A stretch of DNA of 64,000 nt from Nitrospirota bacterium. Its GTDB lineage: Bacteria > Nitrospinota_A > UBA7883. Position 1 is the first letter of the stretch. The number at the start of each line of letters is the position of its first letter. The stretch lies in assembly GCA_024275315.1 (NCBI GenBank), contig JAJRZK010000027.1, positions 68,714-132,713 on the forward strand, read 5' to 3'. The notes beneath the pieces are model-generated. The model saw only the letters and a list, made by a program, of their open reading frames with translations, was not told where the DNA came from and ran no database searches. This document shows, piece by piece, positions 10,527-64,000 of this stretch. The position numbers and the translations under genes are program-made.

Positions 10527-10527
10527 C

Positions 10528-16759: not shown

Positions 16760-16765
16760 GAAACG

Positions 16766-31212: not shown

Positions 31213-31215
31213 CTT

Positions 31216-37600: not shown

Positions 37601-38964
37601 GACCCGGTGCCCGCGGCGCATACCTTGTTCATTTCAAAATCAACCACGGCGCCTTTGTCGATGGAGACGTATTTGCTGTCCTGCCCGCCGATCTCGAAAA
37701 TCGTATCCACTTCCGGATGAAAATGTATCGCCGCCGTCGCCTGGGCGGTTATTTCATTGCGGACGGTGTCGGCGCCGATAAAGTCGCCGATCATATACCG
37801 GCCCGATCCGGTGGTTCCCACCCCGAGTACGTTGACCTTATCCCCTATTTCCGACCCTATCTCCATCAGGCCCCTGGTGACCGCCTCGATGGGGCGGCTC
37901 CTAGTCCTGATGTATCGTCTCGCGATAACTCTCATGCTCTCGTCGATGGCGACCACGTTTGTGCTCAGCGACCCTATATCCACACCGATAAAACATCCGA
38001 TGTTTTTGTGGCCGTTCAATCTGTTCGTATGTGTGTCATACATCTCGTCATTCATCTCGCCGGTCAGGGGGCTCATGGAGCTTCTGGCGGCGTTGCGCAC
38101 GGCTCGATAGTTCTCAAGCCCACCGGTCCCCTTGAACCTGAAGCCGTTCTGGTTCTCCATGGAAATCAGCGCCGCGCCTATGGCGCCCATTACCGCCCGC
38201 TCCGGCGGGATGAATAACTCCTCTGCCGGCAATTCGAACTGTTCCGCCATGGCCTGCACCACGCCCTGGTTCCAGGAGACCCCACCGAAAAACGCGACTG
38301 GTTTGTTAATCTCCCTGCCCATGCACACGTTGCTCTTGTATGACCTCGCCACCGCGTGGCACAGCCCCGCCACTATATCCCACACCGGAGTTCCGATCTG
38401 TTGCAGGTGGATCATGTCGGATTTTGCGAAGACGGAGCACCGCCCCGCGATCCGCGGCGGGTTCTTGGATTTCAGCGCCAACTGGCCAAACTCGCCTTCT
38501 ATATCCACCCCGATTCGCTTGGCCTGCTGGTCCAGAAAACTGCCTGTGCCGGCGGCGCACAGATTGTTCATGGAAAAATCGGCGAGAACCGTCTTTCCCT
38601 CGACCTCCTTGAACATGAGCATCTTGGAGTCTTCTCCGCCCATCTCTATGAGTGTCCTGATGTTTGGGTACAAAGAGGATACGGCCCTGGAAAATGATAC
38701 GATCTCGTTGGCGAACTCCCCCCCCACCAGAGAAGCGACCAGTTCACCCGCGCTACCGGTGACGCCGATGTTCATGACGCGGGAGCCTTCGGCTTTTCCC
38801 AGCAGTTCGCTAATCGTTTTTACCGTGGCCGGAATAGGCTCGCCATACGATCGTCTGTAGGAATGGGATAAAACAGAGCCACTAGAATCGACAATGGCTC
38901 CTTTAACCGAAACAGAGCCAATATCAAGACCAATCCATACACCACCGGTTTTGTCCAAGCCCAT
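34663..38964 (-). CDS. fused 2x BadF/BadG/BcrA/BcrD-type ATPase (CoA-substrate-specific enzyme activase) + 2-hydroxyacyl-CoA-dehydratase-like domains (1433 aa)
   Basis: Two acetate/sugar-kinase-fold ATPase repeats (IGLDIGSVSVKG... and IGVDIGSLSTNV...), each with cluster-ligand CAAGTGSF motifs, followed by HgdB/HgdC-like dehydratase domains. YjiL/YjiM-type fusion architecture. Confidence 0.85.
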   Translation of the reverse strand: MGLDKTGGVWIGLDIGSVSVKGAIVDSSGSVLSHSYRRSYGEPIPATVKTISELLGKAEGSRVMNIGVTGSAGELVASLVGGEFANEIVSFSRAVSSLYPNIRTLIEMGGEDSKMLMFKEVEGKTVLADFSMNNLCAAGTGSFLDQQAKRIGVDIEGEFGQLALKSKNPPRIAGRCSVFAKSDMIHLQQIGTPVWDIVAGLCHAVARSYKSNVCMGREINKPVAFFGGVSWNQGVVQAMAEQFELPAEELFIPPERAVMGAIGAALISMENQNGFRFKGTGGLENYRAVRNAARSSMSPLTGEMNDEMYDTHTNRLNGHKNIGCFIGVDIGSLSTNVVAIDESMRVIARRYIRTRSRPIEAVTRGLMEIGSEIGDKVNVLGVGTTGSGRYMIGDFIGADTVRNEITAQATAAIHFHPEVDTIFEIGGQDSKYVSIDKGAVVDFEMNKVCAAGTGSFIEEQAEKIDLDIEKDFANTAFDAKAPGKFGDRCTVFIESDLVSNQQKGMNKQDLAAGLAYSIVSNYLNKVVGDRKIGSNILFQGGVAWNRAVVAAFQNVTGKKITVPPHHDVTGAIGAALIAMKKRLRDGPSEPSRFLGFDLQNRKYKVTTFECKACDNVCNVSRIKFEGEDAHYYGARCELFEGDKKKKKKADRPVDLFVEREKMMFGSVSTKVKRPSGTRAAVGVPRSLMSYELFPFWKTLLEDLGFEVVLSGKTSPAVIRDSIQHVKAETCFPIKIMHGHVIDLIEKGVDFIFLPSVITMNSVKSMFVQSYTCPLVQSISHIIQSAIDLAGAGVDLLAPSIFFQRGDQDVARELKTVLGDKFGIPLKDIRRAVAKARKAQDAFYMSMRDRGREVLRQAQDRGEKPVVILSRPYNGCDSGINLDLPRKLREMGKIAVPIDFLDLAEGPAWDKYPDMYWRSGQRIISAAQQVGKNNRLDAIFIYSFKCGPDSFIEHILTQALGGKPCLRLEIDEHAADAGAITRLEAFFDSLENCETASVVVRNILGKTGVNGAGSGGYNGNGVGAGVVRGDIVKGRCRTLYLPYMCDHGHIIAAALRGTGVPAVLLPKSDRESLDIGLKFSSGKECVPFAITTGDIIKKARETGFDPDRSAFFMPTTQGPCRFGQYQRVQRIILDELGFGNVPLLSPDADSGYGNSVDFGMRFRRSAWRGVVVVDILAKLLHETRPHELRPGETDRVYEQCLQKTAELVEKDSSLLFDYVWEIQDRFQAIQVDGKTRPRIGVVGEIFMRSHSFGNQEIIKRIENLGGKVWLAPIGEWIMYCTDRYINKSRIDKKYLDLIKGYMQDRIQKKDERKLLEPFKETLASAEDPMIGQVLEYASPYMRDTIEGEAILSLGKAVDFARKGLDGVVNIMPFSCMPGTIVAAISKKLREDHDNIPWLNLDYDGVEETNSQTRLEAFMYQAEQYRGKERVFENY

Positions 38965-44641: not shown

Positions 44642-45580
44642 TCAGATATGCGCGACATCCTCGGCGGATCGTTTCTTGACGTGTGTGGCGGCGGCCACCT
44701 TTATCTTGCTGGACAGAATCCTGCGGACCGTATCCAACCCCTGGTACAGCTTCAGCTCCTCCTTGTCCACCACGTCCACGGCGCCTATTTCATTCGCCCG
44801 GAGCCTCATTTTGCTCCCTTTCTGAGCGACGGAGCTGACTATGATCACAGGCTTGGGAAAATGGATCATCAGTTTTTTCAGAAACGAGACACCATCGAGC
44901 TTGGGCATGATAATGTCCAGCGTTATCACATCCGGGTTGAGCTCTAATATTTTCGACCGGGCGTCGTACGCGTCCTCGGCCTGGCCGACAACATGGATTT
45001 CATCATCCGTCGAAAGGGCTTTTTGAATGATGCCACGAACGGTGTAGGAATCGTCCACGATTAGCACCTGGATTTTGCGGCCCGCCAGGTCTTTTTTCTT
45101 CGCCTCAAGCTGTAATGTAAGCTCCGATTTCTGTATCATCCGAACTTCCACTTCGCCCGTATGGTTATCGAAGAAAATCTTCATGCCAGAGTCGCCCCCG
45201 GTCCTGTTTCTCTTTATGGCGATCCCGTGAGATTTGAGCAACTCCAGGGCTATGGCTATGTTTCGCTGGCCTATCTCGAACCCCGTGTTCAGGTGCCCGA
45301 CAACGGCGCCTCCTCCATAAACGCTCGCCTCCAGGTTTCTTTTGTTCGGGTCAACCTTGAGCATGGAGGAGATGAGCTTGTTGGTGGAATAATCACCGTA
45401 TTTACCCACCATGCTCTGGTTCCCGCCCGTGGGGAGCATAAAATGGTTCATGCCGCCGAATTTCCCGCTTTTGTTATAAAGACACACCGCGACACACGAC
45501 CCGAGCAGGGTCGATATGATGGCAGGTTGTTTGGTCAAGGCGATTTCACCCGGAAGAACAAACAGCTTCTTTTTTTCCAT
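44642..45580 (-). CDS. CheD (chemoreceptor glutamine deamidase) fused to a C-terminal CheB-type receiver domain
   Basis: N-terminus matches CheD with catalytic Cys/His context (LLGSCVAVCLY, MNHFMLP). C-terminus has KIQVLIVDDS...DVITLDIIMPKLDG...VIIVSS, closely matching the CheB N-terminal REC domain. Confidence 0.75.
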   Translation of the reverse strand: MEKKKLFVLPGEIALTKQPAIISTLLGSCVAVCLYNKSGKFGGMNHFMLPTGGNQSMVGKYGDYSTNKLISSMLKVDPNKRNLEASVYGGGAVVGHLNTGFEIGQRNIAIALELLKSHGIAIKRNRTGGDSGMKIFFDNHTGEVEVRMIQKSELTLQLEAKKKDLAGRKIQVLIVDDSYTVRGIIQKALSTDDEIHVVGQAEDAYDARSKILELNPDVITLDIIMPKLDGVSFLKKLMIHFPKPVIIVSSVAQKGSKMRLRANEIGAVDVVDKEELKLYQGLDTVRRILSSKIKVAAATHVKKRSAEDVAHI

Positions 45581-45681
45581 TGTCTATATTTCCCGTATTT
45601 ATGATAAACAGATTTCAGCGATATGTTTATTGTATCCCAAGGACGAATCGCTCCGCTCCGGGCCGAATAACGGTTTTTGTA

Positions 45682-47841
45682 TCATTGTCCCAGAAACTGC
45701 TTGAGTATCCCTTCCACGCTCAATATCAGCGCCATCCTTGTTCCGTCCAGTATCGACACCCCCTCGAATGCACTGGGCTCTTTTGTCTGGACGGTAAGTT
45801 GCTTGTATACTATCTGGCGCTGGCCCATCATCTCGTCCACCACGAGACAGACCGTCATGCCACGCGATTCGATCAATACGCATATCGCATCCCATATATT
45901 TTCGTACCTCGGTTTCGTCTTGAAAAGAGCGTGAAGCCGGACGACCGGGTATATCTTGCCCCATCTCTGGACGACCTCGCCCTTGCCTTCCACGGTGCTT
46001 ACATCCTCGCGTTTGGCCCTGAAAGACTCTCGCACGCTCTCTGCGGGAATCAGAAACATGCTCGACCCCACCGCCAGAGTCAACCCCAGCTTGATCCTGG
46101 TTGTGTACGCCAGCGGCGTTACTATCTTCACCCGCAACCCTTCGCCGGGGGAGTTGTCCAACAGCAGTGTCCCACCCATTTCATGAACACCCGCCGACAG
46201 CACGTCCATCCCCACTCCCCTGCCGGAGGTTTCGGTGATCGATTGCGCGGTGGAAAAGCCCGGTTTTAGTATCAGGTTCAACGCTTCACTATCAGACATC
46301 TTCGCGGCCGCGTCTTGCGACACAAACCCCTTGTCTACGGCCACCTGGCGGATTTTGGCGGTATCCACACCACTTCCGTTGTCAGATATTTCTATTATCA
46401 GGTTCGCCTTGTCCGAACTGACATCGATGCAGATGCGCCCCTCCTCCTCTTTACCCGCCGCGGCGCGCTCTTTTGGTGTTTCTATTCCATGATCGGCGCT
46501 GTTTCTCACCAGATGCACAAGGATGGTTTCAATTTTTTCCAGCAGGCTTTTGTCAATCTCCGTGTCGCCACCTCTACACTCGAGCCGGATATTTTTCTTC
46601 CTTTCCCTGGCGATATTTCGCACCAGCCTGGGCAACTTGGCCAATGCCCTTTCCACGGGGGTTTTCCTGATGACGTACAGGCTTTTCTGGAGCTGGTTCG
46701 AAAGTTCACGAAACGACTGGTTGGTGTTCTTGAAATTAAGGGCGATCCCATTGAGCTCGTTATCTTCAGGCCTGCGCTGGATATAGTTGAACAGCTCGCT
46801 TAGCGTAATCAGCTCTCCCACATAGTCGATAAAAACATCCAGAAGCGATTCCTCCACCCGGACAAAACCCACCCTCCGCTCTCCCCTCCTTTGCTGGTAC
46901 CCCTTGCCATCTTGCGGCTCGGCGGCCGAGGGGGCTTTTGTCCGCTCCGGTTTTTGTTGTGTAAGTCCCTTGGCGTATTCATCCAGAACGGCGGATATGG
47001 AGCCGGCGAGCATCTCGTCGATCCCGATGGCGTCCTGGTAAAACATTTCGAAATCTTCCTTCAGAGTGTTAAGCTCGCCCAAGGGCCCGGTCACTTCCGC
47101 CTTGACGTGTTTTTCTATGAGCGCATCAAGAGCCTTGGTGAAAGTCGCATACGCGGTTTCGTCCTGGGAGCTGTTTTCCATGGCGTTGTTTATCAGAGCG
47201 CGCAAATCCAGATATTCCCGGGTAACGTCGATGTCGCCATACATCCATTTTGTTCCATCTTCCATGGATGTTTTTCTTTTGTCTTTCAACAAAAACGGGG
47301 CGTTTTTGGATATAATCTCGAACATTTCAGACACCGGACTATCTTCATATTGTCCATCATCGTAACTGGAGAAAAACACCAGCAGGCTCTTCCTCAAATT
47401 TTCAAGCTGGTTTTCCTCTGAGCCCTCTCCCAGGCTGGCGTCTATCTGCGACAAATAGGCCGCTTCATCTTCGGTAAGAGTTACATCAACTCCCTTGTTG
47501 GCGTTCAGACGGTTGAAGATATTTTTCAGGTAATCCGCGCCTTCAAGAATGAATTTCACTATCTCCCTGTCGATCTCTATTTCCTTGCTGCGGATAAGGT
47601 CAAGATAGTTTTCGAGTGTATGACAAAATGTCTGCACGTTTGTGAAATTGAAAAACGAGCTGTTTCCCTTCAGGGAATGGACAGCGCGGAAAATGCCGTG
47701 GATATGGCTTTCATCGGTCAAATCGGCGTCGAGCCCCTGGGAATGCTCCTCTATCTCCTGGAGCATCTCATCGGCCTCTTCCAAAAACGACTGGAAAAGA
47801 CTCTCCTCTATTTCCCCGCTACTCTGGTCTGTCATAAGCAC
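45682..47841 (-). CDS. cheA: chemotaxis histidine kinase CheA
   Basis: HPt (IFRAVHSLKGNS), dimerization and HATPase domains (HLVRNSADHGIE, DNGSGV, GRGVGMD), C-terminal CheW-like domain. A ~250-aa insert sits between HPt and the dimerization domain. Confidence 0.9.
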   Translation of the reverse strand: MLMTDQSSGEIEESLFQSFLEEADEMLQEIEEHSQGLDADLTDESHIHGIFRAVHSLKGNSSFFNFTNVQTFCHTLENYLDLIRSKEIEIDREIVKFILEGADYLKNIFNRLNANKGVDVTLTEDEAAYLSQIDASLGEGSEENQLENLRKSLLVFFSSYDDGQYEDSPVSEMFEIISKNAPFLLKDKRKTSMEDGTKWMYGDIDVTREYLDLRALINNAMENSSQDETAYATFTKALDALIEKHVKAEVTGPLGELNTLKEDFEMFYQDAIGIDEMLAGSISAVLDEYAKGLTQQKPERTKAPSAAEPQDGKGYQQRRGERRVGFVRVEESLLDVFIDYVGELITLSELFNYIQRRPEDNELNGIALNFKNTNQSFRELSNQLQKSLYVIRKTPVERALAKLPRLVRNIARERKKNIRLECRGGDTEIDKSLLEKIETILVHLVRNSADHGIETPKERAAAGKEEEGRICIDVSSDKANLIIEISDNGSGVDTAKIRQVAVDKGFVSQDAAAKMSDSEALNLILKPGFSTAQSITETSGRGVGMDVLSAGVHEMGGTLLLDNSPGEGLRVKIVTPLAYTTRIKLGLTLAVGSSMFLIPAESVRESFRAKREDVSTVEGKGEVVQRWGKIYPVVRLHALFKTKPRYENIWDAICVLIESRGMTVCLVVDEMMGQRQIVYKQLTVQTKEPSAFEGVSILDGTRMALILSVEGILKQFLGQ

Positions 47842-52722: not shown

Positions 52723-55173
52723 TTGAATAATTCCACAGGATCGTCCCTGACCAGGCGCCCGGAACTGGTTGCGGTGTTCACCCTGGCGGCCGGGATAGTG
52801 GCTGGTCGCCAGTTCGCAGAACCGGCCTTGTCCGCAAACCCGCTAATCGGGCTGGTTGTTATTGCGATCGCCGTTACAGCGCTTGTCAGCTCCGAGCGGC
52901 GGTTCAGGCTTGTCCTGGCGACATTGTTCATCCTTGGCGCCGGGTTGATAACACGTCACGATCACGCTGTTCCCCCTGACAACCATGTGTCGCTGGTTGT
53001 TACGGGCGAACCGGTGGATATAACCGGACAGATAATCAGCCTTAATTCCGTCCGGATCAGAAGCGACCGGTACCTTGTCTCCATACATACGGTGGACGGC
53101 GAACCTGTGCGGGGAACCGGCGGGATGTACGTTTCGCGCCCGTCTCTCCCGGAACGCGCCTTGCCTGGCGACATGTTGCGCCTTGAAAAGGTCACACTCC
53201 GGAAAATACGAGGGTTTCACAATATCGGCGGATGGAGCTACGAAAATTTCATGAGAGACAGGGGTGTAGACGTTCTCATAAAAATTTCCAGATCATCCAA
53301 ACTGACCGTCACAGGATCACGCTGGACGTGGCGGCGCCCATTTGAAAAGATGAAAAACGACGCGCGAAAATTGATCACGGCGGACAAACCCGATGTCCGG
53401 GCGGCGCTGGAAGCCATGCTCACCGGTGACCAGGGACATGTCACACCGGAGTTGCGGGACACGTTCGCCAAGGCGGGGACGTCGCACCTGCTGGCCGTAT
53501 CCGGGTTGCATGTAGGGTTCGTGGCGGCCGCGAGCTATTTCGTGTTGCGTGTCCTGATGTTCATCATCATCTACCCGATCGGTTACAGGTGGGCCTCGTT
53601 CGGCCTCCCGATGCGGTTGGCGGCGGGCGGGGCGCTGGTGGTTGTGATCGGTTTTACCCTTTTTACCGGGCCGCGTCTGCCGGCGTTAAGGGCCGGGATC
53701 ATGATAGGGGTCTACCTGGTTGCGGTAATCTTTGGAAGGGGGCGGGATTTTTACGGAGCTTTCTCACTGGCGATGGCCATAATTTTACTGACCATGCCAT
53801 GGTCACTTTTTACGGCCGGTTTCAATCTATCGTTTTCCGCTGTTTTCTTCATCACCGTGTTCTTGGAAAAATGGTGGAAGCCGATGGGCGGGCCGGAGGC
53901 GGAACTGGACCGTCTGGCCCCTTCCTGGTGGAGACGGGTCCTGTCCAGATATCCGGTGACAGGGTCGTACGCGGCCGTATCCCTGTTCGCCATGATAGGA
54001 TCCGCCCCGATAGCCGCGCTTTATTTCAACACGGTTCCGTTGTACTCTGTGGTTGTAAACTCGTTCCTGGTTCCCATTACTTCTGTAACCGTACCCATCG
54101 GCCTGCTGGGCTTGGCCTTGCACAGTGGAACGTTTATCGCCATCGCCGCGTCCCTGGCCAACGTCATCGTCACCGTTTCCCGTTCCGCCGCCGCGCTTCC
54201 TTTTTCGTTTGTACACGTCGCCAGCGTCACCCCGATGTTCATGGTCTCCTATTACGCCGCGATAGCCATCTTGCTGATCATGCCAAGAGGGCCGGTTCGA
54301 AGGGGGTGTTTTATCGGCGTATCGGCGGCGGCCCTTATATCTCTGGCCATACCGTCGGCCCTCTCGACGCTCGACAAAACCCTCACAGTACGGTTCCTGG
54401 ACGTGGGACAGGGTGACTGCACCCTGGCGATATGGCCGAAGGGGGGAGCCCTGGCGATCGACGGGGGGAACAGGTATCCGAACTTCGACGTGGGGCGCTC
54501 TGTGATAGCTCCGGTGTTGTGGAGCTCTGGCCGGCTGCGGTTCAACGCGATTTTCGTCACCCACGGCGACGCGGACCACATTGGCGGAATACCGGGACTC
54601 GCCGACAAGGCTCCTGCGGATTTAATCGCCGATCACGGTCTGCCATCAAGGCATCCGTTGTTCGCCTCGCTACGGTCCCGGGCGCAGACGGCGGGTGTAT
54701 ATCGAAAACTCAAAGCAGGCGACCGGTTGACTTTCCCCGGCGGGCTTGTGGTGGATGTTCTAAATCCGCCGCCAGGCCCGCTTCCATACGCAGACAAGGT
54801 GAACAACCGCTCTCTTGCGCTGAAGCTTACATATGGCGCGATCAAAATCCTGACGGTGGGTGATATTGGCAGGGAGACGGAACGGTGGCTTGTCGAATCG
54901 GGCGCGGATTTGCAGGCTGATATTTTGAAAGTGGCTCATCACGGATCCAACAGCTCTTCATCGGAAGGGTTTCTCCGGGCGGTTGGGGCACGATACGCGG
55001 TTATAAGCGTAGGATACAACAACCATCACGGCCACCCGCATCCAAAAACCCTGGAGCGGCTCAGAAACGCGGGGATGACAATCTATAGAACCGACCGGAA
55101 TGGCGAAGTGATGGTCAGCACCGATGGCGTTAATATCGAAATCAAAACCTACGAGTCCACAGCGGGGAAATAG
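52723..55173 (+). CDS. comEC: DNA-internalization competence protein ComEC/Rec2 (with C-terminal metallo-beta-lactamase domain)
   Basis: DUF4131 N-terminal TM region, competence domain (HLLAVSGLHVGF), C-terminal MBL fold (HGDADHIGG, VAHHGS). TTG start assumed. Confidence 0.85.
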   Translation: MNNSTGSSLTRRPELVAVFTLAAGIVAGRQFAEPALSANPLIGLVVIAIAVTALVSSERRFRLVLATLFILGAGLITRHDHAVPPDNHVSLVVTGEPVDITGQIISLNSVRIRSDRYLVSIHTVDGEPVRGTGGMYVSRPSLPERALPGDMLRLEKVTLRKIRGFHNIGGWSYENFMRDRGVDVLIKISRSSKLTVTGSRWTWRRPFEKMKNDARKLITADKPDVRAALEAMLTGDQGHVTPELRDTFAKAGTSHLLAVSGLHVGFVAAASYFVLRVLMFIIIYPIGYRWASFGLPMRLAAGGALVVVIGFTLFTGPRLPALRAGIMIGVYLVAVIFGRGRDFYGAFSLAMAIILLTMPWSLFTAGFNLSFSAVFFITVFLEKWWKPMGGPEAELDRLAPSWWRRVLSRYPVTGSYAAVSLFAMIGSAPIAALYFNTVPLYSVVVNSFLVPITSVTVPIGLLGLALHSGTFIAIAASLANVIVTVSRSAAALPFSFVHVASVTPMFMVSYYAAIAILLIMPRGPVRRGCFIGVSAAALISLAIPSALSTLDKTLTVRFLDVGQGDCTLAIWPKGGALAIDGGNRYPNFDVGRSVIAPVLWSSGRLRFNAIFVTHGDADHIGGIPGLADKAPADLIADHGLPSRHPLFASLRSRAQTAGVYRKLKAGDRLTFPGGLVVDVLNPPPGPLPYADKVNNRSLALKLTYGAIKILTVGDIGRETERWLVESGADLQADILKVAHHGSNSSSSEGFLRAVGARYAVISVGYNNHHGHPHPKTLERLRNAGMTIYRTDRNGEVMVSTDGVNIEIKTYESTAGK

Positions 55174-55251
55174 ACAGGTTGATCGCTCGAACACCTGCGC
55201 AAAACGGCGCATGGCTCTCACACGGCGCCGACGGCGGGGTCGTGTTTCAGT

Positions 55252-55785
55252 CTATTCCTCCAGAACAGCGATGTATGGCAGGCATCTGTACTTGTTCCCA
55301 GCGTCGAGCCCGTACCCCACGACAAAAACATCGTCTATGGTAAAACCTGTGTAATCGGGACTGATATTCTCGACCCTCCTGGACGGCTTGTCCAGCAGAG
55401 CGCAGGTTATAACGTCCATTGCGCCTTTGGCGTATATGTGGTTGCGCACTTCCGCAAGGGTCCGGCCTGTGTCCACGATATCATCTACAAGCAGTACCGT
55501 TCTGGATTTCAAATCGATACGGACATCCTGCTCTATATCCACCTTGCCTGAAGAGCCGGTTGCGTCTTTGTAGCTGGAAACTATCATGAAATCGACAAGG
55601 GGACATAACCCGTGCCGGCTGAGACTTCGCATCATGTCCGACAAAAAAACGACGCTCCCGTTTAGCAACCCAACCATAATTGTTGATGAACCATCCAGAC
55701 GAGACGCGATCAAAGCGGCCATATGGTCCACTTTTACCGCTATATCCCCCTGTGATATCAATAACTTACCTACGCCCACGGTCAA
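55252..55785 (-). CDS. hpt: hypoxanthine-guanine phosphoribosyltransferase
   Basis: PRPP-binding motif VLLVDDIVDTGRTL. 177 aa. Confidence 0.85.
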   Translation of the reverse strand: MTVGVGKLLISQGDIAVKVDHMAALIASRLDGSSTIMVGLLNGSVVFLSDMMRSLSRHGLCPLVDFMIVSSYKDATGSSGKVDIEQDVRIDLKSRTVLLVDDIVDTGRTLAEVRNHIYAKGAMDVITCALLDKPSRRVENISPDYTGFTIDDVFVVGYGLDAGNKYRCLPYIAVLEE

Positions 55786-55974
55786 ATTCCCGATTCGTCA
55801 ATATTTTGGTACTGAATTTGAAACGATATGGAATTGTACAAGAAATTGACGGTTATCACCATAGGGAGCATTTGGGAAACCGGTTTCGCGGCTAAAACAG
55901 ATACAGATATAGAAGCTTCCTATAGCTATCGCACGATTGCAGGTGGTCGTGCGATAGCCGTGGTGATATGCGAA

Positions 55975-56000
55975 AGATTTGAAGCATTGTGGTATAACGA
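55975..56000 (+). promoter_or_regulatory. candidate sigma-70 extended -10 promoter (TGGTATAAC) and AGGAGG RBS upstream of the sigma-54 activator gene
   Basis: Sequence ...ttgaagcattgtggtataacgacaag... lies 40 nt upstream of the ATG at 56032, with an AGGAGG RBS 8 nt upstream of the start. Confidence 0.3.
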
Positions 56001-56031
56001 CAAGTAAAACAAGCATACAGGAGGAGTAAAG

Positions 56032-57228
56032 ATGGTAACCGAGCTTGCTGAAGCTCCCGGGACTGAAACGGTTTGCGCGCCCGATTTTTCGATTTTCGTA
56101 GGTAAAAGTCCTGCGTTGCAATCGGTGCTTGACACCATCTCCAACCTGTTGGATAACGACTCGACAGTCCTGGTTTTAGGCGAGAGCGGCACCGGCAAGG
56201 AACTGATCGCAAGAGCCATACATTACAATTCAAACCGAAACCAATACCCCCTGGTGACCGTCAACTGCGGCGCGATACCCGAGGAATTGCTGGAATCGGA
56301 GCTGTTCGGTCATGAAAAGGGAGCGTTTACAGGCGCCATCCGCACCCGAATCGGCAAGTTCGAGCTGGCCGACAAGGGGACAATATTCCTTGACGAGATC
56401 GGAGACATGAGCCCCACGCTTCAGATAAAGCTGTTGCGGGTGCTCCAGGAGCATGAATTCGATCGAGTGGGCGGAAACAGGACCATGAAAGTATCTGTCC
56501 GCATCATAGCGGCGACAAACCAGAACCTGGAAAAAGCCATAGAGGAAGGCAGGTTCCGTGAAGACCTCTATTACCGGCTCAACGTCATCCCGATAGAAGT
56601 CCCAGCGCTGCGTTTCCGGGGCGATGATATCTCCCTGCTGGTGACGCATTTCATAAAAAACTTCAACGCGTTGAAAAACAGAAACATCTCCGGGATGAGC
56701 CAGGAGGCGATCAACCTGCTTCGGGCGTATACATGGCCAGGCAACATACGCGAACTCGAACACATGATCGAACGGCTTGTCGTGCTCAAGGCGAGCGGTG
56801 TCATAGAAAAGCAGGATCTGCCGCCTAAACTTCAAAATCTCGAATTACCACCGGACGACCAGCTATCCAAAGACATGCTTCTCGTTGGCGATCCGGATGA
56901 ATTGGCAGAAGAGCGTCTGTCCGCCCCGGCGATCAAAATCGCGCAACCTCCAAACGGGTCACCCGACAATGTCGGCGCCCGGAGCAACATCATTGAAAAC
57001 CATCCGGGGCGGACGGACGCTGATTTTCAGATTGAAGACTCGCCCACACTTCCGGAAGAAGGGATAAACCTCAAAGAAGCGGTAGACCGTTATGAAACCG
57101 CCCTGATCCTCGCCGCGCTCGACAGATGCGGCTGGGTGAAAAACAAGGCGGCCAACCTGCTGGGGCTTAACCGCACCACCCTGGTGGAAAAACTGAAAAA
57201 GAAAAAGCTGGTCAGAACAGAGGGATAA
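56032..57228 (+). CDS. sigma-54-dependent transcriptional activator lacking any N-terminal regulatory domain (AAA+ + long linker + Fis-type HTH)
   Basis: Walker [31 protein letters not shown]-finger. C-terminal HTH ([18 protein letters not shown]). Only ~30 aa precede the AAA+ domain. Confidence 0.85.
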
Positions 57229-57536
57229 AGCCGGGCTCGCTGACAAAATCTTTTGTGCCGCCAACCAACGCCCCGCAGGTGTCGCGAATCTCGCTTCTTT
57301 GCACATACCGAGCTTTTTGCGCGGCCCTCCCTAACCTTCATTATGGAATCCGCCGATACCTCAAATGACAGCCCCAAGCCCGACCAGCCCTGTTATGGTT
57401 GCGGGCGGAGGGACACTTTTGCATGGCGGCCGGCAGGTTATGAAGGCTATTGAATGATTTACAACATGGTCTGGCCGACTTTATAATAAGGTTTTCTTGA
57501 AACGCAACTTATAACAGAAAATATCAGGACCTTTTC

Positions 57537-58916
57537 ATGGGCGATCATATCGAAACCATAGCGCTTGTCGCGGATAAGTTCATGGTGGATATGAAAATAG
57601 AGGAGCAGCTCAAAAAGGAGGGATTTAACGCCGTCATGGTCAAAAAAGCGCCTGATCTTATAAAGGCGCTGGTAAAGCTGAGCCCCGCGATCATAATCAT
57701 CGACCTGGATCACCAAAACCAGGACAATCCCCTCGCCGTAATTTCCGCCATAAAAAAAGAAGCCCAACTCAAGGAATCCGAGGTGTTCATATATACCGAA
57801 GGAATCGATGTCAGAACTGAAGTGGCCCTGAGAAAGCTAAAGGTGCAATCCTATTTCACCAAATCGAAAAACACGGAACTATTGATAAATGGAGTGCGGA
57901 ACCATTTTTCATGGGACGAAATGACGCAGGAGTATAACCCGTGGGAAGACGAGGAGGAAAACGATGACGATTACATCTATGATTTGAGAGAAGAAGAGCA
58001 AATCATAGAAAAACAGCTGGTAAAACGTCCCCGCCATCGCCCGCCGGACCGGCCGTCCCGGCCAGCGGCGACTGATGGAGCCCCCACCGCGACCCCGGCA
58101 CAGCAACGTCGTCCCGCGCCTCCACCGCAAGAGGCCGCGCCTCCACCGCAAGAGGCCGCGCCTCCAGCGCGGGAAGAACCAGCCCCGGCGGCCAAGACGC
58201 CATCCGATATCGAGGAATCATCCATAAATCTTCCGGGAATGCTCCCTGAAGATCAAAAGGAAAGCGACACCAACGAGTTCATGGAAATGCTGACCGATTT
58301 TCAAAATGGCATCAGCAAAAAGCTCGACGATGTGGAAAAAGCGCCTGGACACGGACAGGCCGCCGAGGTTGAGAACCAGATAATACAAGACGGTCCGTTC
58401 AAGGCCGAAAACCTTACATCGGAAGGGGAAGCGCTATTGACCCAGCCGGAAAATTTCACCAACACCGACGAGTTCCAGGACCTTTTGAACGAGTTTCACG
58501 CCGGGTTGGACAACAAACTTGCAAACATGGAAAAAGGTCATGAATCTCACTACAACCTGGGCATCTCGTATTTTGAAATGGGGCTGTTCGAGCAGGCCCT
58601 GGAGCAGTTCGAAAAATGCGTTGGAACCCAGGAATACAAGCTGAGAAGCATGAACATGATAGGCGCCATTCACAGAAAGCTAGGCGCCTATGATAAAGCC
58701 GTGGAGTCTTTTAAGGCATGCCACATGAACGCGCCTGATGAATATTCCAAGCTCAGCTTCCGTTATGAAATCGCGGACACTTTTATGACCCAGGGGAAAA
58801 TGCGCGACGCTTACAAAATGTTCGCCACAGTCTACAAGGTGGACAAGGGGTTTAAGGACACCAGAGCCAAGTTGATAAAAATCAAATCGGCTCTTGAAGC
58901 GAACAACCAACCCTGA
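57537..58916 (+). CDS. pseudo-receiver-like N-domain / Pro-rich linker / C-terminal TPR protein (candidate MglA partner)
   Basis: N-terminal REC-like fold with degenerate acidic pocket (ALVADKFM, IIIIDLD). Pro/Ala-rich linker including tandem APPPQEA. C-terminal TPR-like repeats (YNLGISYFEMGLFEQALEQFEKC...). The stop overlaps the mglA-like start (TGATG). Confidence 0.7.
   Translation: MGDHIETIALVADKFMVDMKIEEQLKKEGFNAVMVKKAPDLIKALVKLSPAIIIIDLDHQNQDNPLAVISAIKKEAQLKESEVFIYTEGIDVRTEVALRKLKVQSYFTKSKNTELLINGVRNHFSWDEMTQEYNPWEDEEENDDDYIYDLREEEQIIEKQLVKRPRHRPPDRPSRPAATDGAPTATPAQQRRPAPPPQEAAPPPQEAAPPAREEPAPAAKTPSDIEESSINLPGMLPEDQKESDTNEFMEMLTDFQNGISKKLDDVEKAPGHGQAAEVENQIIQDGPFKAENLTSEGEALLTQPENFTNTDEFQDLLNEFHAGLDNKLANMEKGHESHYNLGISYFEMGLFEQALEQFEKCVGTQEYKLRSMNMIGAIHRKLGAYDKAVESFKACHMNAPDEYSKLSFRYEIADTFMTQGKMRDAYKMFATVYKVDKGFKDTRAKLIKIKSALEANNQP
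58116..58166 (+). repeat. 21-nt tandem repeat (gcgcctccaccgcaagaggcc x ~2.4) encoding APPPQEA repeats in the Pro-rich linker
   Basis: Direct tandem copies at 58116-58136 and 58137-58157, plus a partial third copy. Confidence 0.6.
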
Positions 58917-59890
58917 TGGTAGTCTTCAATTACGCCAATCGTGAATTGACGGCGAAAATCGTCTATTACGGCCCGGGGCTGTGCGGGAAAACCACGAACC
59001 TTGAATTCATCCACCAGAAAATCTCCCCCGGCAAAAGAGGCCAGCTTCTAAGCCTGGCCACCGAAACCGACAGGACCCTGTTTTTCGACCTGCTACCGGT
59101 GGATCTGGGTACCATATCGGGGTTCCACGTCCGGCTACAGCTTTTTACCGTGCCCGGCCAGACGTATTATAACTCCACACGCAAACTGGTGTTGCGCGGC
59201 GCTGACGGTGTCGTATTTGTGGCCGACAGCAGGCGAGATCTGCTTGACGCCAATATCGAAAGCCTTCATAACCTTTTTGAAAACCTGAAGGAAAACAACA
59301 TCGATCCCGACTCCCTGGCGTTGGTGTTGCAATATAACAAACAGGATCTAAAACCGCTTATACCGGTGGAGGAATTGAACAAAGCCCTTAACCCCAAAGG
59401 AGCGCCATGGACAAAAGCCGTGGCGCTACGGGGTGTAGGCGTCATAGAAACTTTCAAGCTCATCTCCAAGGATGTGATCACACTGCTGAAAAACAAAGTC
59501 GGCGCGGTCCAGGTCCCGCCGGGTCCAGCCACGCCTCCGCAAAAGGCGCCACCGGCGGATATCGATGGCCAGCAGATAAAAATCAAATCGGAAAAAACCC
59601 ATATTCCGAAAGGCTCCAGGGCTACCAGGGAACAGATCCGCAAAGAAACCAGCCTTTCGGAACATGGGATAAAGTCACCGGCCCAAACAATCGAAACATG
59701 GCTAAGCTTGATGGAGGAGGGTAAAATAGACATGAGCGCAAAAGAAACACTGCCCCTGATCAACCATATAAAGAAAAACCTCGTGGGCATCATAGAAAGC
59801 AACAAGAAAACAAACGTCCAGCATGAAGACCTGTTCCGCCTTCTCGACAAGCTGGCGATGACGCTGAAAAAAGAGCCTGGTAACAAGTAA
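58916..59890 (+). CDS. mglA: MglA/SofG-family Ras-like GTPase with ~130-aa C-terminal extension
   Basis: First ~195 aa align closely with Myxococcus MglA (KIVYYGPGLCGKTTNL P-loop, TETDRTLFFD switch I with intrinsic Arg, TVPGQ, NKQD, GVGV). A Pro-rich linker and a ~90-aa helical C-domain follow. Confidence 0.8.
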   Translation: MVVFNYANRELTAKIVYYGPGLCGKTTNLEFIHQKISPGKRGQLLSLATETDRTLFFDLLPVDLGTISGFHVRLQLFTVPGQTYYNSTRKLVLRGADGVVFVADSRRDLLDANIESLHNLFENLKENNIDPDSLALVLQYNKQDLKPLIPVEELNKALNPKGAPWTKAVALRGVGVIETFKLISKDVITLLKNKVGAVQVPPGPATPPQKAPPADIDGQQIKIKSEKTHIPKGSRATREQIRKETSLSEHGIKSPAQTIETWLSLMEEGKIDMSAKETLPLINHIKKNLVGIIESNKKTNVQHEDLFRLLDKLAMTLKKEPGNK

Positions 59891-60101
59891 TAATATCCAT
59901 CCGGAACTCGGCCGGGGCTCGCCGCTGTCAACAATTTGACACAAGCGCCCATACCCGTCGCCCTGACCTGAGATATAACTCCATTAATATTAAATTGTTA
60001 ACTCGATCGCACGTCTTTCCGGAGTCGCGGCGCAAAACCGGCCACTCCGGCACGGGACTTGCTCACTTTACAGTCAGGAACAGTTGACTTTGGACAGGTA
60101 A

Positions 60102-62723
60102 GTGAGAATAGACAGCTTGGCGTTTAAAACGGTCTCCGCGCTTGTTGCGGTGGGGTTTTTCACTTTTGGCTTTCAGTTTGCCATAGGAGCCCCCGCCCGC
60201 ATCATCGATTTGAGCCTGAGCGAGCAGGAGGATCACAGCACACTCTCGATCACGACAGACATCACCCCCGACTTGGCTATGTCTTTCGACACGAAGACAT
60301 CCACCCTGACCGCCAGGCTTGTTTCAGTGACAGGGGAGAACATACTGGACGATCTCAAATACTCTGACAAGCTCATAAAATCGGTTTCGGCCGTAAAGGA
60401 AGAAAAAACCGGTGACGTGCTGATAAAGATAGCGTTCCACAAGCCAAACATCACCTTTAACCGCGCAAGCCTCCCCGGCGAGCCCGGGATCACGCTAAAC
60501 TTCCGCTCGACAGAAAAACCATTGAGAATAACCGGCGTCACCCCGGAAAAACTGATGGCCGCCATTGCCCGGCCTGCCGGGGAAAAACCTTCCAAAGAAA
60601 AAACCGTCGAACCCACCGCCCCGAAAACCGAACAACCCGCCGGCGAAACTATGGAAAAAAAGCCGGCCTCCATCGAGCCCGTAGCGGCAAAAGCGCCGGT
60701 GAAAAAGCCGGTCCGGTCAGAGCGGGAACTAGCCGAGTTGGCCGAACTGGACAAGGAATACAAGAAAATCGAGAACAATTCAGGCCGTGAACAGTATATC
60801 GAGTTGATGAAAAAGATACAGAAAGGAGAATTCGCAGAAGCCGTCGACGACGCCAACAGGTTCATGAAATATTTTCCGCTGTCGATTTACAGGGAACGGG
60901 TGTTGTACAGCAAGGCCGAAGCGCTGTACCGGATCGCAAAAAAGGACATGACCACGTTCAACACCGCCATCACAGCCGCAAACGAGGCTATCGCCTCGGC
61001 CCCGGACTCGTACCTGGCGCAACCGGCGCTGATGCACAAGGCGAGCCTGCTGGCCGACCAGGAGCTTTACACCGAAGCGCTGGCGGAATACGGCGGATTG
61101 CTTCGCCTCGCCCCGAAAGGGAAATATATTGTCACAGCCATGCTTTCCAGGGCGCAGATTTATATGAAGCAGGAGAAATTTCAGAAAGCGTACAACGAAC
61201 TGGAAAAAATCCTGATCCTTTTTCCGGCGCACAGGAAAGTGCGCGACGCAAAATATCTCATAGCAGAATCGCATTATCACAGGGGAAACTATAAGATCGC
61301 GGGAACCATATTTAACGAAGCCCTGAAACAATGGCCGACATACCCTAAAACCCACCCGGCCACATATATCAGAATCGCAGAAACGAACTATCGCCTGGGC
61401 AAAAAAAAACAGGCCATTGAAGATTGGTATTCGATCGTCAACCTCTTTCCCAAATCGTTTGAAGCGAGAAAATCGATGCTGTGGATCGGGGACACTCTTG
61501 TGGACATGAACAAGAAGCTCGACGCGGCCAAGATATTCGAGCGAACCGCGCGGCGTTATCCCAAGAACGACGAAGCTGTCATGGCCAGTATGAGACTGGC
61601 CACCTTGGGAGCCGAAAACCCGAAACTGTTGAAGCACAGCGAGATTTTCGATTACCACGCTTTTGAGCGTCCTTTTGAAACTTTCAATGAAATAATAAAG
61701 CGTTATCCCGACAAGCAGATAGGCCAGGACGCCCTCGTGCGCAAGGGCAAGGCGTTTTCCGACATCAAAAGATCCCTCTCGGCCATAATGGCGTTCAAAG
61801 AGCTCCTGAGGACATATCCGGGCTATCGCATGTCCGAAGAGGTGTTCGGGCTCGTAAGGAGCAACTTCCTGGAAATGATCAACACATATTACGAACAGGA
61901 CGGCTTTTTTATCGTGCTGATGACATATTACAACAACTTCGACCCCTTTCTGCGTGGAATAGAAAATCCCGAAATCCTGGTAAAAATAGCCGACAGCTAC
62001 TCGCATATGACACTGTACGACAGGGCCATAGAGTATTTCAGGCTCGCCAACAAGTTTGATCCGGACAAAAAACTGCTACCCAAAACGGCTTTCAACATCG
62101 CCATGATAACGCTGAAAAAGAAAAACTACGAAGAAGCGAAATCCATGTTGCGCCTTTACCTGAGGCAGTTCCCCCGATCCTCATACACCACGTCGGCCCG
62201 TCACCTGCTCGGTGACGCCTTTTATAAAACAGGTGAAGCGACGCAGGCCGTCACGGAATGGCGCATGGCCGTGGAAACAAACCCGGGACATCCCCGCACC
62301 TCGCGATCCCTGTACAATATGGGGCTGGTATACAAGGGCAAAAAGCAATACGCAATGGCCATAGACTCCTTTAACCGCGCCATAGACACTTTCTCGCCGA
62401 CCGTGAATACCGGAGAAGACCCGATCCACATTAAAAACAGCGTATATCTCGTCGCCGAAACCTATTATCTGGACCGAGACTTTCCCAACGCCATCCGGGA
62501 GGCCAACGCGGCGAAACGAAGATATAATGACGATAAACGCAATATCTGGATGGATTACCTGATATCATCCAGCCTGGAGCGGATCAACAAAGATGAGCAA
62601 GCCATAGCCAGGTTGAAAGACATGTCTGAACAGGACAAGGACCTTGCGGTGGCCAAAGTGGCCATGGCCAAGCTCAAAGCCTTCGAATGGAGAAGGAAAA
62701 ACGAGAGTCTTTTCGTAGACTAG
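60102..62723 (+). CDS. secreted multi-TPR protein with a possible N-terminal AMIN-like beta domain
   Basis: Signal peptide. A ~100-aa beta-rich segment (RIIDLSL...VLIKIAF...ITLNFRS) resembling AMIN domains. Lys/Glu/Pro-rich linker, then >=12 TPR-like repeats. GTG (60102) or TTG (60117) start. Confidence 0.7.
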   Translation: MRIDSLAFKTVSALVAVGFFTFGFQFAIGAPARIIDLSLSEQEDHSTLSITTDITPDLAMSFDTKTSTLTARLVSVTGENILDDLKYSDKLIKSVSAVKEEKTGDVLIKIAFHKPNITFNRASLPGEPGITLNFRSTEKPLRITGVTPEKLMAAIARPAGEKPSKEKTVEPTAPKTEQPAGETMEKKPASIEPVAAKAPVKKPVRSERELAELAELDKEYKKIENNSGREQYIELMKKIQKGEFAEAVDDANRFMKYFPLSIYRERVLYSKAEALYRIAKKDMTTFNTAITAANEAIASAPDSYLAQPALMHKASLLADQELYTEALAEYGGLLRLAPKGKYIVTAMLSRAQIYMKQEKFQKAYNELEKILILFPAHRKVRDAKYLIAESHYHRGNYKIAGTIFNEALKQWPTYPKTHPATYIRIAETNYRLGKKKQAIEDWYSIVNLFPKSFEARKSMLWIGDTLVDMNKKLDAAKIFERTARRYPKNDEAVMASMRLATLGAENPKLLKHSEIFDYHAFERPFETFNEIIKRYPDKQIGQDALVRKGKAFSDIKRSLSAIMAFKELLRTYPGYRMSEEVFGLVRSNFLEMINTYYEQDGFFIVLMTYYNNFDPFLRGIENPEILVKIADSYSHMTLYDRAIEYFRLANKFDPDKKLLPKTAFNIAMITLKKKNYEEAKSMLRLYLRQFPRSSYTTSARHLLGDAFYKTGEATQAVTEWRMAVETNPGHPRTSRSLYNMGLVYKGKKQYAMAIDSFNRAIDTFSPTVNTGEDPIHIKNSVYLVAETYYLDRDFPNAIREANAAKRRYNDDKRNIWMDYLISSSLERINKDEQAIARLKDMSEQDKDLAVAKVAMAKLKAFEWRRKNESLFVD

Positions 62724-62735
62724 CCGTATTCCGGA

Positions 62736-63866
62736 ATGAACAACAGGGCAAAAGAACTCGAAAAGCTCCGGGAGGCTTTTGACGCGCTCAACCTTTCGAC
62801 AGGCAAGCTAAAATCCGCCTACGACGAGCTAAAGTCCGAAGCGGCCCGGGTCAACAGGGACCTGGAGGAGAACCGGGGATTTCTGAGCGATATCCTGGAC
62901 AACCTCAACTGCGCCGTGGTGGTCACGGGCCTGGACGGTGCGGTACGCCTGTCCAACCCTGAAGCCCGCAGGCTCGGGGTGGACACCGGGCGAATGATCA
63001 AGGCGCTTCATAACAAGATGGTCAGCATCGCCGACAGGACCGAAATCCTCCAGCCGAAAATCGAGTGTGACACGGAAAACGGCGTCAAGCTCGCTGTCTC
63101 CGTTTCATGCCTGCACGCCAAAAAAAAGGGAAACGCGGGATTTATCTTCGTCATCGAAGACCAGACCGAGCTCGGCCGCCTGCGTAAACAAACCCAGAGA
63201 GCCGACAGGCTGGCGGCGATAGGGAAAATGGCGGCGGACATGGCCCACGAGGTGCGAAACCCGCTGGGGGGGATGGAAATCTTCGCTTCCCTGCTCGGGC
63301 GGGAGCTCGAGGGGGATGACGAGAAACTAAGGCTGTTAAATCACGTCACGACAGGCATCCATTCGATAAACAACGTAATCTCCAACTTCCTCCTGTTTAC
63401 AACCGACCCCAAACCTGTTAGAAAAGAGTTTGATCTTCGCAAGCTCGTCCTGAACGTAATTGAATTCACCGGGCACGTGTTCGAACAAAACAATATATTA
63501 GCCAAAACGGACATCCAGGAGTATCCGATGCCCGTCACAGCGGATGAAAACCTGATCCGGCAGGTGTTGTTGAACATGATACAAAACGCCATCAACGCAA
63601 TGCCGGATGGGGGAGAGTTTACAATCACCGCAAAAGACATAAAATCGGACGGACGGGTGGAGATCACCTGCTCTGACACGGGGCCCGGAGTGCCGGAAAA
63701 CATCAGGGAAAAAATATTCGACCCGTTTTTCACCACGAAAGAGACTGGAGCGGGACTGGGGCTCAGCATAGTGAGCCAGGTGCTCCAGGCGCATGGGGGT
63801 TACGCGGATATTCTGGAAACGGGCGCAGGCGGGACAAAATTCATCCTGGCTATTCCATACAGTTAG
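62736..63866 (+). CDS. PAS-domain sensor histidine kinase
   Basis: H-box AADMAHEVRNPLGG, N box NMIQNAINA, G1 DTGPGV, G2 GAGLGL. Confidence 0.8.
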   Translation: MNNRAKELEKLREAFDALNLSTGKLKSAYDELKSEAARVNRDLEENRGFLSDILDNLNCAVVVTGLDGAVRLSNPEARRLGVDTGRMIKALHNKMVSIADRTEILQPKIECDTENGVKLAVSVSCLHAKKKGNAGFIFVIEDQTELGRLRKQTQRADRLAAIGKMAADMAHEVRNPLGGMEIFASLLGRELEGDDEKLRLLNHVTTGIHSINNVISNFLLFTTDPKPVRKEFDLRKLVLNVIEFTGHVFEQNNILAKTDIQEYPMPVTADENLIRQVLLNMIQNAINAMPDGGEFTITAKDIKSDGRVEITCSDTGPGVPENIREKIFDPFFTTKETGAGLGLSIVSQVLQAHGGYADILETGAGGTKFILAIPYS

Positions 63867-63875
63867 AGCGGACAA

Positions 63876-64000
63876 ATGGAGCCTAAAAACATCCTGGTCG
63901 TCGACGACGAAGAAGAGATGCGTATAGCGCTGAAAGAAGCGCTCCACCGCGCCGGATACCAGGTCACCCTGGCAGGCGATGGCGAGGAGGGATACCGCCT
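63876..64000 (+). CDS. response regulator receiver (5' partial, runs off the window)
   Basis: MEPKNILVVDDEEEMRIALKEAL..., a typical REC N-terminus. Likely the cognate regulator of the kinase at 62736. Confidence 0.6.
   Translation, partial: MEPKNILVVDDEEEMRIALKEALHRAGYQVTLAGDGEEGYR

Follow-up and report, generated by a model that had tools for sequence, protein, structure and literature searches.

Positions 56032 to 64000 of a 64,000-nucleotide stretch from a Nitrospinota genome (NCBI assembly GCA_024275315.1, contig JAJRZK010000027.1; the whole stretch is called the window) carry genes for a sigma-54 activator without a sensory domain, for an MglA-type GTPase with a receiver-tetratricopeptide repeat (REC-TPR) partner, and for a large exported TPR protein, by prediction, followed by a histidine kinase and a response regulator. 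The region is not one operon; it consists of three separable modules that are juxtaposed. As the overall explanation we regard it as probable that the large TPR protein, whose N-terminal domain resembles AMIN, belongs to a sigma-54-gated operon and that short half-sites upstream of this operon are shared with the activator gene. The components are all of known kinds and loosely linked. What is new is a conserved promoter/enhancer pair, a half-site code in which the activator without a sensor shares, and a PflA-like layout in an AMIN-TPR protein that is restricted to this lineage.

According to open reading frames (ORFs) and Pfam matches, the plus strand of the region carries six genes (lengths in amino acids, aa):

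56032-57228, plus strand: bacterial enhancer-binding protein without a regulatory domain, 398 aa, with an AAA+ domain and a Fis-type helix-turn-helix (HTH) only
57537-58916, plus strand: REC-TPR protein, 459 aa, with a receiver-like domain followed by a Pro/Glu-rich linker and by TPRs at the C-terminus, predicted to be cytoplasmic
58916-59890, plus strand: MglA-type GTPase, 324 aa, with a C-terminal extension of about 130 aa
60102-62723, plus strand: AMIN-TPR protein, 873 aa, GTG start, predicted to be exported
62736-63866, plus strand: soluble histidine kinase, 376 aa, with a coiled coil, a PAS-like domain, HisKA and HATPase
63876-64000, plus strand: response regulator, first 41 codons with a Response_reg match, cut by the end of the window

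Three modules in one region

A preliminary description of the region, made from the DNA letters, had taken tight co-directional spacing as a sign of one functional unit. Tight spacing was found only inside sub-groups: REC-TPR and mglA share 1 nt, the AMIN-TPR and kinase genes are 12 nt apart and the kinase and regulator genes 9 nt. Two gaps are wide, 308 nt between the activator and REC-TPR genes and 211 nt between mglA and the AMIN-TPR gene, and both contain promoter-like elements. The 459-aa REC-TPR gene had been omitted from that description. An Rfam search of positions 55000-64000 yielded no match to a structured RNA in the intergenic regions at E<=0.1.

All relatives found belong to Nitrospinota, a few of the records being labelled Nitrospirae or just 'bacterium'. 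Gene order was counted in ten loci with a TPR protein at least 40% identical, the window included; the TPR homologues of loci L010-L016 (28-36% identity), which have no kinase or regulator neighbours, were left out of these counts. The order TPR protein, histidine kinase, NtrC-type regulator is kept in the window and in L001, L002, L004, L007 and L008. L003 keeps the first two genes and its contig stops there, so that L006, in which the kinase is lost, is the sole exception where the contig reaches far enough. REC-TPR lies upstream of the operon in nine of the ten loci, whereas mglA adjoins it in only four (window, L001, L004, L006) and the activator without a regulatory domain is likewise present in four (window, L001, L006, L007). 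In L007 the activator is immediately 5' of the operon and REC-TPR and mglA are gone. The activator always has comEC(-hpt) on its 5' side, with unrelated 3' genes in L020/L021, L022 and L023, and in the metagenome-assembled genome GCA_942491805.1 the activator (L023) and the TPR operon (L008) are on separate contigs. In L017/L018 and L019, REC-TPR and mglA are found as a pair, with none of the region's other genes. The gene after the regulator in L006 and L007 is queA, which in L019 comes after mglA; this fits insertion or loss of the AMIN-TPR operon as a block.

Because gene order splits into three modules that occur independently among the orthologous loci, the region is not the single functional unit that had been proposed. 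Module A would be a sigma-54-dependent operon for the AMIN-TPR protein, the soluble PAS histidine kinase and the NtrC-type regulator. Module B, the activator without a regulatory domain, appears to be tied to comEC-hpt rather than to module A. Module C, REC-TPR plus mglA, would be a translationally coupled cytoplasmic polarity pair that often but not always lies beside module A.

A conserved promoter and candidate enhancer before the AMIN-TPR gene

The following sequence elements are predicted around the three modules:

55797-55822, plus strand: sigma-54-like element with abutting GTCAA (GTCAA-N4-TTGGTAC-N5-TTGAA), about 210 nt 5' of the activator gene
55846-55852, plus strand: TTGACGG half-site just 3' of the sigma-54-like element
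57458-57487, plus strand: sigma-70-like promoter TTTACA-18-TATAAT, 11 of 12 consensus positions, ahead of REC-TPR/mglA
59926-59941, strand not assigned: palindrome TGTCAAcaatTTGACA (TGTCAA-N4-TTGACA, 16 bp), a candidate enhancer or upstream activating sequence (UAS), centred 115 bp upstream of the -24 GG of the promoter below
59988-60000, plus strand: tentative integration host factor (IHF)-like site TATTAAATTGTTA (WATYAN-N4-TTR) between the UAS and the promoter
60048-60063, plus strand: sigma-54 promoter cGGCACgggacTTGCt, with GG at 60049-60050 and GC at 60061-60062, 39 nt before the GTG start of the AMIN-TPR gene

With a single mismatch, cGGCACgggacTTGCt is the top match to the sigma-54 consensus in the window, and the pattern GGYAY-N5-TTGC occurs there once, at 60049. 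The pattern TGGC-N8-TGC does not pick it up, the first base being C. In L001-L004 and L006-L009, GGYAY-N5-TTGC is likewise found once, just 5' of the TPR gene, which together with the window makes nine of the ten orthologous loci. The palindrome is the sole exact GTCAA-N4-TTGAC in the 64 kb. Its relaxed form, GTCAA-N4-TTGRC, is present once per locus, 83-117 bp upstream of the -24 element, in eight of the ten loci. When the otherwise unalignable intergenic DNA is aligned, the promoter and palindrome blocks account for 19 of the 22 invariant columns. In the window, L001, L002, L003 and L007, WATYAN-N4-TTR lies 46-48 nt beyond the palindrome. In four genomes the activator has no canonical sigma-54 promoter in its reach other than that of the operon.

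Promoter, palindrome and IHF-like site, together with the gaps of 12 and 9 nt between the genes, argue for a classical sigma-54 operon with an enhancer. Transcription of the AMIN-TPR operon would start from the predicted -24/-12 promoter, and we infer dependence on RpoN. The candidate enhancer YGTCAA-N4-TTGRCR, about 85-115 bp upstream, would serve this promoter with the IHF-like site between them; an AAA+ activator bound to the enhancer would open the promoter, and the operon would thereby feed back on itself. A sigma-54 link within the region is borne out by these elements and by the half-sites that flank the element upstream of the activator gene.

A sigma-54 activator without a sensory domain

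In the activator, Sigma54_activat (PF00158) covers residues 23-189 with 249.5 bits and is followed by AAA_lid_14 and by HTH_8 (PF02954; residues 354-390, 50 bits), the latter nearly invariant in seven orthologues; the GAFTGA motif is present. The AAA+ domain starts at residue 23 with no domain N-terminal to it, and the ORF, which has a GGAGGAG ribosome-binding site, is already maximal. The orthologues in L001, L006, L007, L020, L022 and L023 measure 402-441 aa. For about 45 orthologous clusters (54-69% identity, 347-467 aa), neither a receiver nor any other sensory Pfam domain is recorded, and receiver-bearing NtrC-type proteins are found among the relatives only below about 55% identity. Since no sensory domain is recorded for these clusters, the lone AAA+/HTH architecture is not an artefact of truncation. 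The absence of a regulatory domain, which the preliminary description had pointed out, is real and conserved. Also correct was its statement that no PspA-like negative regulator adjoins the gene, which is flanked by hpt, on the minus strand, and by the REC-TPR gene. As a hidden PspA-like partner, a 36-aa ORF 3' of the activator and a 65-aa ORF in L020 were considered; neither is conserved, and a partner may be encoded elsewhere.

Enhancer-binding proteins without a cis-regulatory domain form a described class that includes PspF and HrpR/HrpS (PMC7057263). The activator resembles them in having an AAA+ domain with GAFTGA, a C-terminal Fis-type HTH and no N-terminal sensory domain, and the NCBIfam model of PspF (TIGR02974) aligns with it end to end, residues 23-390. 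However, its score of 298.8 bits compares with an equivalog cutoff of 443.55, so it is not a PspF equivalog. It further differs from PspF and HrpRS in a variable linker of about 75 aa between lid and HTH, in its own promoter, which appears sigma-54-like rather than sigma-70, and in the genes beside it, which include no PspA- or HrpV-like trans-regulator. Its clade is restricted to Nitrospinota and syntenic with comEC-hpt.

Half-sites shared by the activator gene and the operon

In all seven independent loci, TGGTAY-N5-TTGWA (window positions 55807-55822) is found once, 5' of the activator gene, and nowhere else in the 452 kb compared. The element has the sigma-54 spacing and the -24 GG, but GT or GA at -12. 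GTCAA precedes it (GTCAA-N4-TTGGTA) and TTGACG follows it, at variable spacing, in six of the seven loci. TTGACG was also considered as the -35 box of a sigma-70 promoter of the activator; by eye, no consistent -10 box lies at 16-18 nt, and the reading was rejected. L006 (= L025) has no GTCAA at the activator promoter and none upstream of the TPR gene, but keeps both -24/-12 elements. The GTCAA/TTGAC half-sites at both places and the joint loss of GTCAA in L006 suggest that the activator gene and the operon answer to one DNA-binding protein even where they are dispersed. Bracketed by such half-sites, the sigma-54-like promoter of the activator would belong to the same regulon as module A. The HTH recognition helix of the activator is unlike that of the NtrC-type regulator (SIRTLRNKLNEY in the latter). 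The predicted reader of the sites is one or the other of these two proteins, with about equal probability.

The AMIN-TPR protein as a putative periplasmic scaffold

A full-length AlphaFold2 model of the AMIN-TPR protein (predicted local distance difference test, pLDDT, 80.2) consists of a hydrophobic helix (residues 6-28), a beta-sandwich (32-136), a disordered linker (141-204) and a solenoid of about 17 TPR hairpins (207-871). The hydrophobic helix has no Cys lipobox and may be a signal peptide or a membrane anchor. For the N-terminal domain, a separate model of residues 29-150 was derived from 12 orthologues (pLDDT 84.8); it has eight strands, and its best fold match is the septum-targeting AMIN domain of AmiC. 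The two four-stranded sheets that make up the AMIN beta-sandwich are present. In contrast, the Pfam AMIN hidden Markov model (HMM; PF11741) finds nothing in the window protein at E values up to 10, and of the 12 orthologues two reach an E value of 0.019 at best. Two distant relatives of the domain score 19.1 and 20.2 bits with the same model, the cutoff being 20.5. A profile of the domain found no match among PDB sequences, and among 1.84 billion representatives it found 30 proteins, nearly all of about 810-880 aa with the domain at about residues 25-150. From the models we conclude that the N-terminal domain is a divergent one that has the AMIN fold and escapes the AMIN HMM. The secreted 873-aa TPR protein with an AMIN-like N-terminus of the preliminary description has therefore stood up with regard to the hydrophobic helix, the beta-sandwich, the TPR solenoid and the fold, and has not with regard to the Pfam model.

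The combination of an AMIN domain with multiple TPRs was already catalogued by de Souza et al. 2008 (PMC2572700). The catalogued AMIN+TPR proteins are from alpha-proteobacteria and firmicutes, and the window protein differs from AMIN proteins such as AmiC and PilQ in going undetected by the Pfam model and in the tiny family to which its N-terminal domain belongs. On the best reading of the models, it would be a periplasmic TPR scaffold made under the gating of sigma-54: the product would be exported, the AMIN sandwich would anchor it to peptidoglycan and the TPR solenoid would be held on a flexible linker.

In a Foldseek search of the PDB with the full-length model, the top match was chain K of 9hmf, a flagellar periplasmic scaffold of Campylobacter jejuni (E 1.2e-18). 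The match spans the full length and is four orders of magnitude better than those to generic TPR proteins, at TM-scores of 0.32 and 0.35. From its length of 773 residues, we infer that chain K is PflA. PflA has an N-terminal beta-sandwich, an unstructured linker and a superhelix of 16 TPRs (PMC12222027), so that a putative signal peptide, a beta-sandwich, a linker, 16-17 TPRs and a length of about 800 aa are common to the AMIN-TPR protein and to this spoke protein of Campylobacter and Helicobacter. There is, however, no detectable sequence similarity, as a profile of 13 orthologues retrieved no PflA chain at E<=1e-3 from the sequences of the PDB. The N-terminal domain has its closer likeness in AMIN, and neither PflB nor flagellar genes lie by the operon. 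To judge from the models, PflA is an architectural analogue, which is not the same as shown homology.

A distant TPR homologue (36% identity) in L010, positions 9480-12028, has GGCAC-N5-TTGC just upstream, and neither a kinase nor a regulator gene adjoins it. Upstream there is an HTH_3 gene, and a REC+TPR protein is encoded 5 kb away on the other strand.

The kinase and the NtrC-type regulator

The kinase has HisKA and HATPase domains according to Pfam and no hydrophobic or membrane segment. Its residues 44-374 align with Thermotoga ThkA (3a0r, E 5e-39), the PAS domain of ThkA falling at 44-140, and no Pfam PAS model matches. Since the alignment includes the PAS domain of ThkA, the label PAS kinase seems reasonable, and the succession of a PAS kinase and a receiver (from position 63876) given in the preliminary description is confirmed. 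The best NCBIfam matches of the kinase are AtoS and ZraS, both below cutoff, and the ZraS structure is among its best PDB relatives. The regulator, of which 41 aa lie inside the window, was read beyond the window end from orthologues. In L001, L002, L004, L006, L007 and L008, it is an NtrC-type REC, AAA+ and HTH protein of 447-503 aa, and because the complete orthologues are of this type, the truncated receiver at 63876 is taken as the start of a second sigma-54 activator. The kinase would phosphorylate this regulator and might act on the receiver-like domain of REC-TPR as well.

Operons of the NtrB/NtrC type (glnALG, zraP-zraSR, atoSC, FlgSR) likewise encode a PAS-HisKA-HATPase kinase followed by a REC-AAA+-HTH regulator, and the -24/-12 promoter, the palindromic UAS about 100 bp upstream and the IHF-like site of the AMIN-TPR operon are like theirs. 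In contrast to these systems, the kinase is soluble, no equivalog cutoff is reached, the first gene encodes an 873-aa AMIN-TPR protein predicted to be exported, and a second activator, without a regulatory domain, shares the cis half-sites.

MglA and its likely receiver-TPR partner

The G domain of MglA (residues 3-196) matches Myxococcus xanthus MglA (5ymx/6izw) with E 3.6e-66 and about 60% identity, and the P-loop GPGLCGKT, TDRTLFFD and VPGQ motifs are aligned. The ATG of mglA overlaps the stop codon of REC-TPR (TGATG), and stop and start coordinates coincide also in L001, L004, L006 and L019. The genes flanking mglA are REC-TPR and AMIN-TPR; mglB, for the Roadblock GTPase-activating protein, is not among them. 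Ahead of the pair, only the sigma-70-like site and no sigma-54 promoter was found.

REC-TPR retains the equivalents of D57, T87 and K109 of CheY in the window and in most orthologues, and phosphorylation of its receiver by the neighbouring kinase is a possibility. Its best NCBIfam match, which at E 1e-11 falls far short of the cutoff, is to the C-terminal part of SgmX. In Myxococcus, the C-terminal region of SgmX, TPR12-14, binds MglA-GTP (PMC7668184), and the TPRs of REC-TPR resemble these. It can reasonably be proposed from this likeness that REC-TPR is a direct partner of MglA through its TPR part.

RomR has a receiver domain and a Pro-rich linker, and REC-TPR likewise has a receiver-like domain and a Pro-rich linker. 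The pair differs from the Myxococcus MglA module in that mglB is not adjacent, that MglA has a C-terminal extension of 130 aa and that receiver and TPRs are united in one partner of about 315-460 aa, translationally coupled to the GTPase.

The REC-TPR protein has 459 aa in the window and 314-371 aa in the orthologues, the excess being a Pro/Glu-rich linker with PPPQEAA-type repeats. The extension of MglA, about 130 aa, is helical; there are very many MglA-like proteins, of about 310-460 aa, that carry a C-terminal extension, and the few matches with a source name that are not from Nitrospinota come from Nitrospirae and Thermoanaerobaculia. In L017 (5062-14410), two PilZ-domain genes follow REC-TPR/mglA and a flagellin gene lies 4 kb upstream. 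Given these flagellin and PilZ genes near the pair, at least some relatives are flagellated, and REC-TPR/mglA may be tied there to cyclic di-GMP signalling. In the window, genes for a CheA (Hpt, HATPase, CheW) and a CheD-receiver fusion (44642-47841, minus strand) are located 8-11 kb upstream of the MglA region, with housekeeping genes between. In Myxococcus, a Che-like system feeds into MglA polarity.

Weighing the explanations

Several observations weigh against the explanation preferred here, in which a sigma-54-gated AMIN-TPR operon shares half-sites with the activator gene. In L005 the promoter is a weak variant and the palindrome differs, and L006 has neither the kinase nor the GTCAA motif. 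At the activator element, GT or GA replaces the near-invariant GC at -12, and the label sigma-54 promoter is tentative there. The differing recognition helices imply that the two activators probably do not both bind the palindrome. The receiver of REC-TPR is below the Pfam Response_reg cutoff and is degenerate in L017, the AMIN HMM of Pfam fails with the N-terminal domain, and no machinery with which a scaffold could pair was found nearby. The preliminary description had named in advance dispersal of the genes in related genomes and failure of the AMIN HMM as findings that would speak against it, and in part both were made: the genes are dispersed in some genomes, and the HMM gave no match to the window protein.

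One rival explanation is that the activator is a bystander in the comEC-hpt block, that the operon is driven only by its own NtrC-type regulator and that the GTCAA resemblance is coincidental or due to an unrelated factor. Consistent with this, the activator keeps comEC(-hpt) where its 3' genes are unrelated (L020/L021, L022, L023), the palindrome and the promoter are present in L002, L003, L004, L008 and L009, on contigs without an activator gene, activator and operon are on different contigs of one metagenome-assembled genome (L023, L008), and the HTH helices of the two activators differ. Chance resemblance does not readily account for the recurrence of both GTCAA and TTGACG around the activator element in six of seven loci, nor for the loss of GTCAA from both places in L006. 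Moreover, the activator is directly 5' of the operon in L007, from which REC-TPR and mglA are gone, and in four genomes no canonical sigma-54 promoter other than that of the operon is in its reach. A bystander activator is rather unlikely in our judgement.

As to the process served, a Pfam scan of about 50 ORFs, spread over most of the 64-kb window, turned up no pil, gsp, secretin or flagellar gene, and no such gene adjoins the operon in the annotated related loci; a prepilin-type gene is 8 kb away in L002. Gene context favours none of the flagellar (PflA-like), pilus and CpoB-like readings. Control of type IV pili or of another secretin by the cluster, as suggested in the preliminary description, with the AMIN-TPR protein as a secretin-associated factor, draws on the occurrence of AMIN domains in PilQ (PMC2572700), on the action of Myxococcus MglA on type IV pili through SgmX (PMC7668184), whose MglA-binding end REC-TPR resembles, on the PilZ genes after mglA in L017 and on weak NCBIfam matches to the pilus TPR lipoproteins PilW and Tgl. 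These matches are, however, far below cutoff and generic to TPRs, the AMIN-TPR protein has no secretin or STN domain in Pfam, and, the prepilin-type gene of L002 excepted, pil, gsp and secretin genes are absent from the ORFs and loci just mentioned. We regard the proposal as quite improbable.

An envelope or division scaffold similar to CpoB/YbgF, acting on septal or polar peptidoglycan, with the sigma-54 circuit as an envelope-stress or growth-phase response like Psp or ZraPSR, agrees with the only NCBIfam model whose cutoff the AMIN-TPR protein exceeds, Tol-Pal YbgF TPR (175 vs 90.1 bits, in three stretches); the BamD and CpoB models match as well, and in fold the N-terminal domain comes closest to the AMIN of AmiC, which targets the septum. 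PspF, which is without a regulatory domain, and ZraSR, an NtrC-type system with a periplasmic partner gene, are sigma-54 systems of envelope stress, and to this analogy may be added the ZraS structure among the best PDB relatives of the kinase. Yet the TPR matches are generic, a kinase without a periplasmic sensor does not read the envelope directly, and tol, pal and fts genes are not nearby; we consider such a scaffold unlikely.

The AMIN-TPR protein could instead be a PflA-like spoke of a flagellar motor, with FlgS/FlgR-like kinase and regulator and with MglA and REC-TPR positioning the organelle. FlgS is a soluble kinase and FlgR an NtrC-type regulator; the proteins encoded here are of like type and both are weak NCBIfam matches. 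The 9hmf_K match over the full length (E 1.2e-18) and the layout of PflA (PMC12222027), which is that of the AMIN-TPR model, point in the same direction, as does the flagellin gene near REC-TPR/mglA on the Nitrospinota contig L017. Opposed to this are the lack of a PflA match at the sequence level, the absence of flagellar genes from the window and from the vicinity of all ten operon loci and of a PflB-like partner encoded nearby, and the identification of chain K as PflA, which goes by its length. We regard the flagellar spoke as quite improbable. Equally doubtful is a two-tier circuit in which the sensor-less activator and the NtrC-type regulator share the GTCAA/TTGAC code and jointly build a PflA-like, peptidoglycan-anchored spoke for a polar organelle, its site being set by the C-terminally extended MglA and a phosphorylatable REC-TPR that replaces MglB/RomR.

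Other features of the window

A second NtrC-type activator (REC and sigma-54 AAA+; 15722-17095, plus strand) is preceded by a PAS histidine kinase (14328-15722) and is broken by one in-frame TAG at 16757-16759, inside the lid domain; this could be a pseudogene, a sequencing error or a candidate for amber read-through. At 28058-32996 (minus strand), an ABC transporter cluster with a GldG-like auxiliary protein (ABC_transp_aux) and a 650-aa DUF4340 protein resembles the gliding-associated GldAFG type. A stand-alone PilZ-domain protein of 110 aa (25266-25598, minus strand) adjoins a HicB antitoxin-like gene, and a 1433-aa protein encoded at 34663-38964 (minus strand) is a fusion of a BcrAD/BadFG ATPase with a DUF2229 'CoA enzyme activase'.

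Significance for Nitrospinota

The cell biology of Nitrospinota, the main marine nitrite oxidisers, has hardly been studied. The analysis provides a regulatory map for a lineage-restricted, predicted periplasmic scaffold: a canonical sigma-54 promoter, a 16-bp candidate enhancer and a second promoter-like element with the same half-sites. The activators of an entire clade have neither a sensor nor a visible partner of the PspA or HrpV type, which raises the question of how they are controlled. If the two-tier circuit were true, one assembly pathway would join sigma-54 transcription to a two-component system and to a Ras-like polarity switch. If the PflA-like reading were true, proteins of the 'high-torque motor scaffold' kind would extend beyond the Campylobacterota; otherwise, the system would represent an ordinary lineage-specific sigma-54 regulon.

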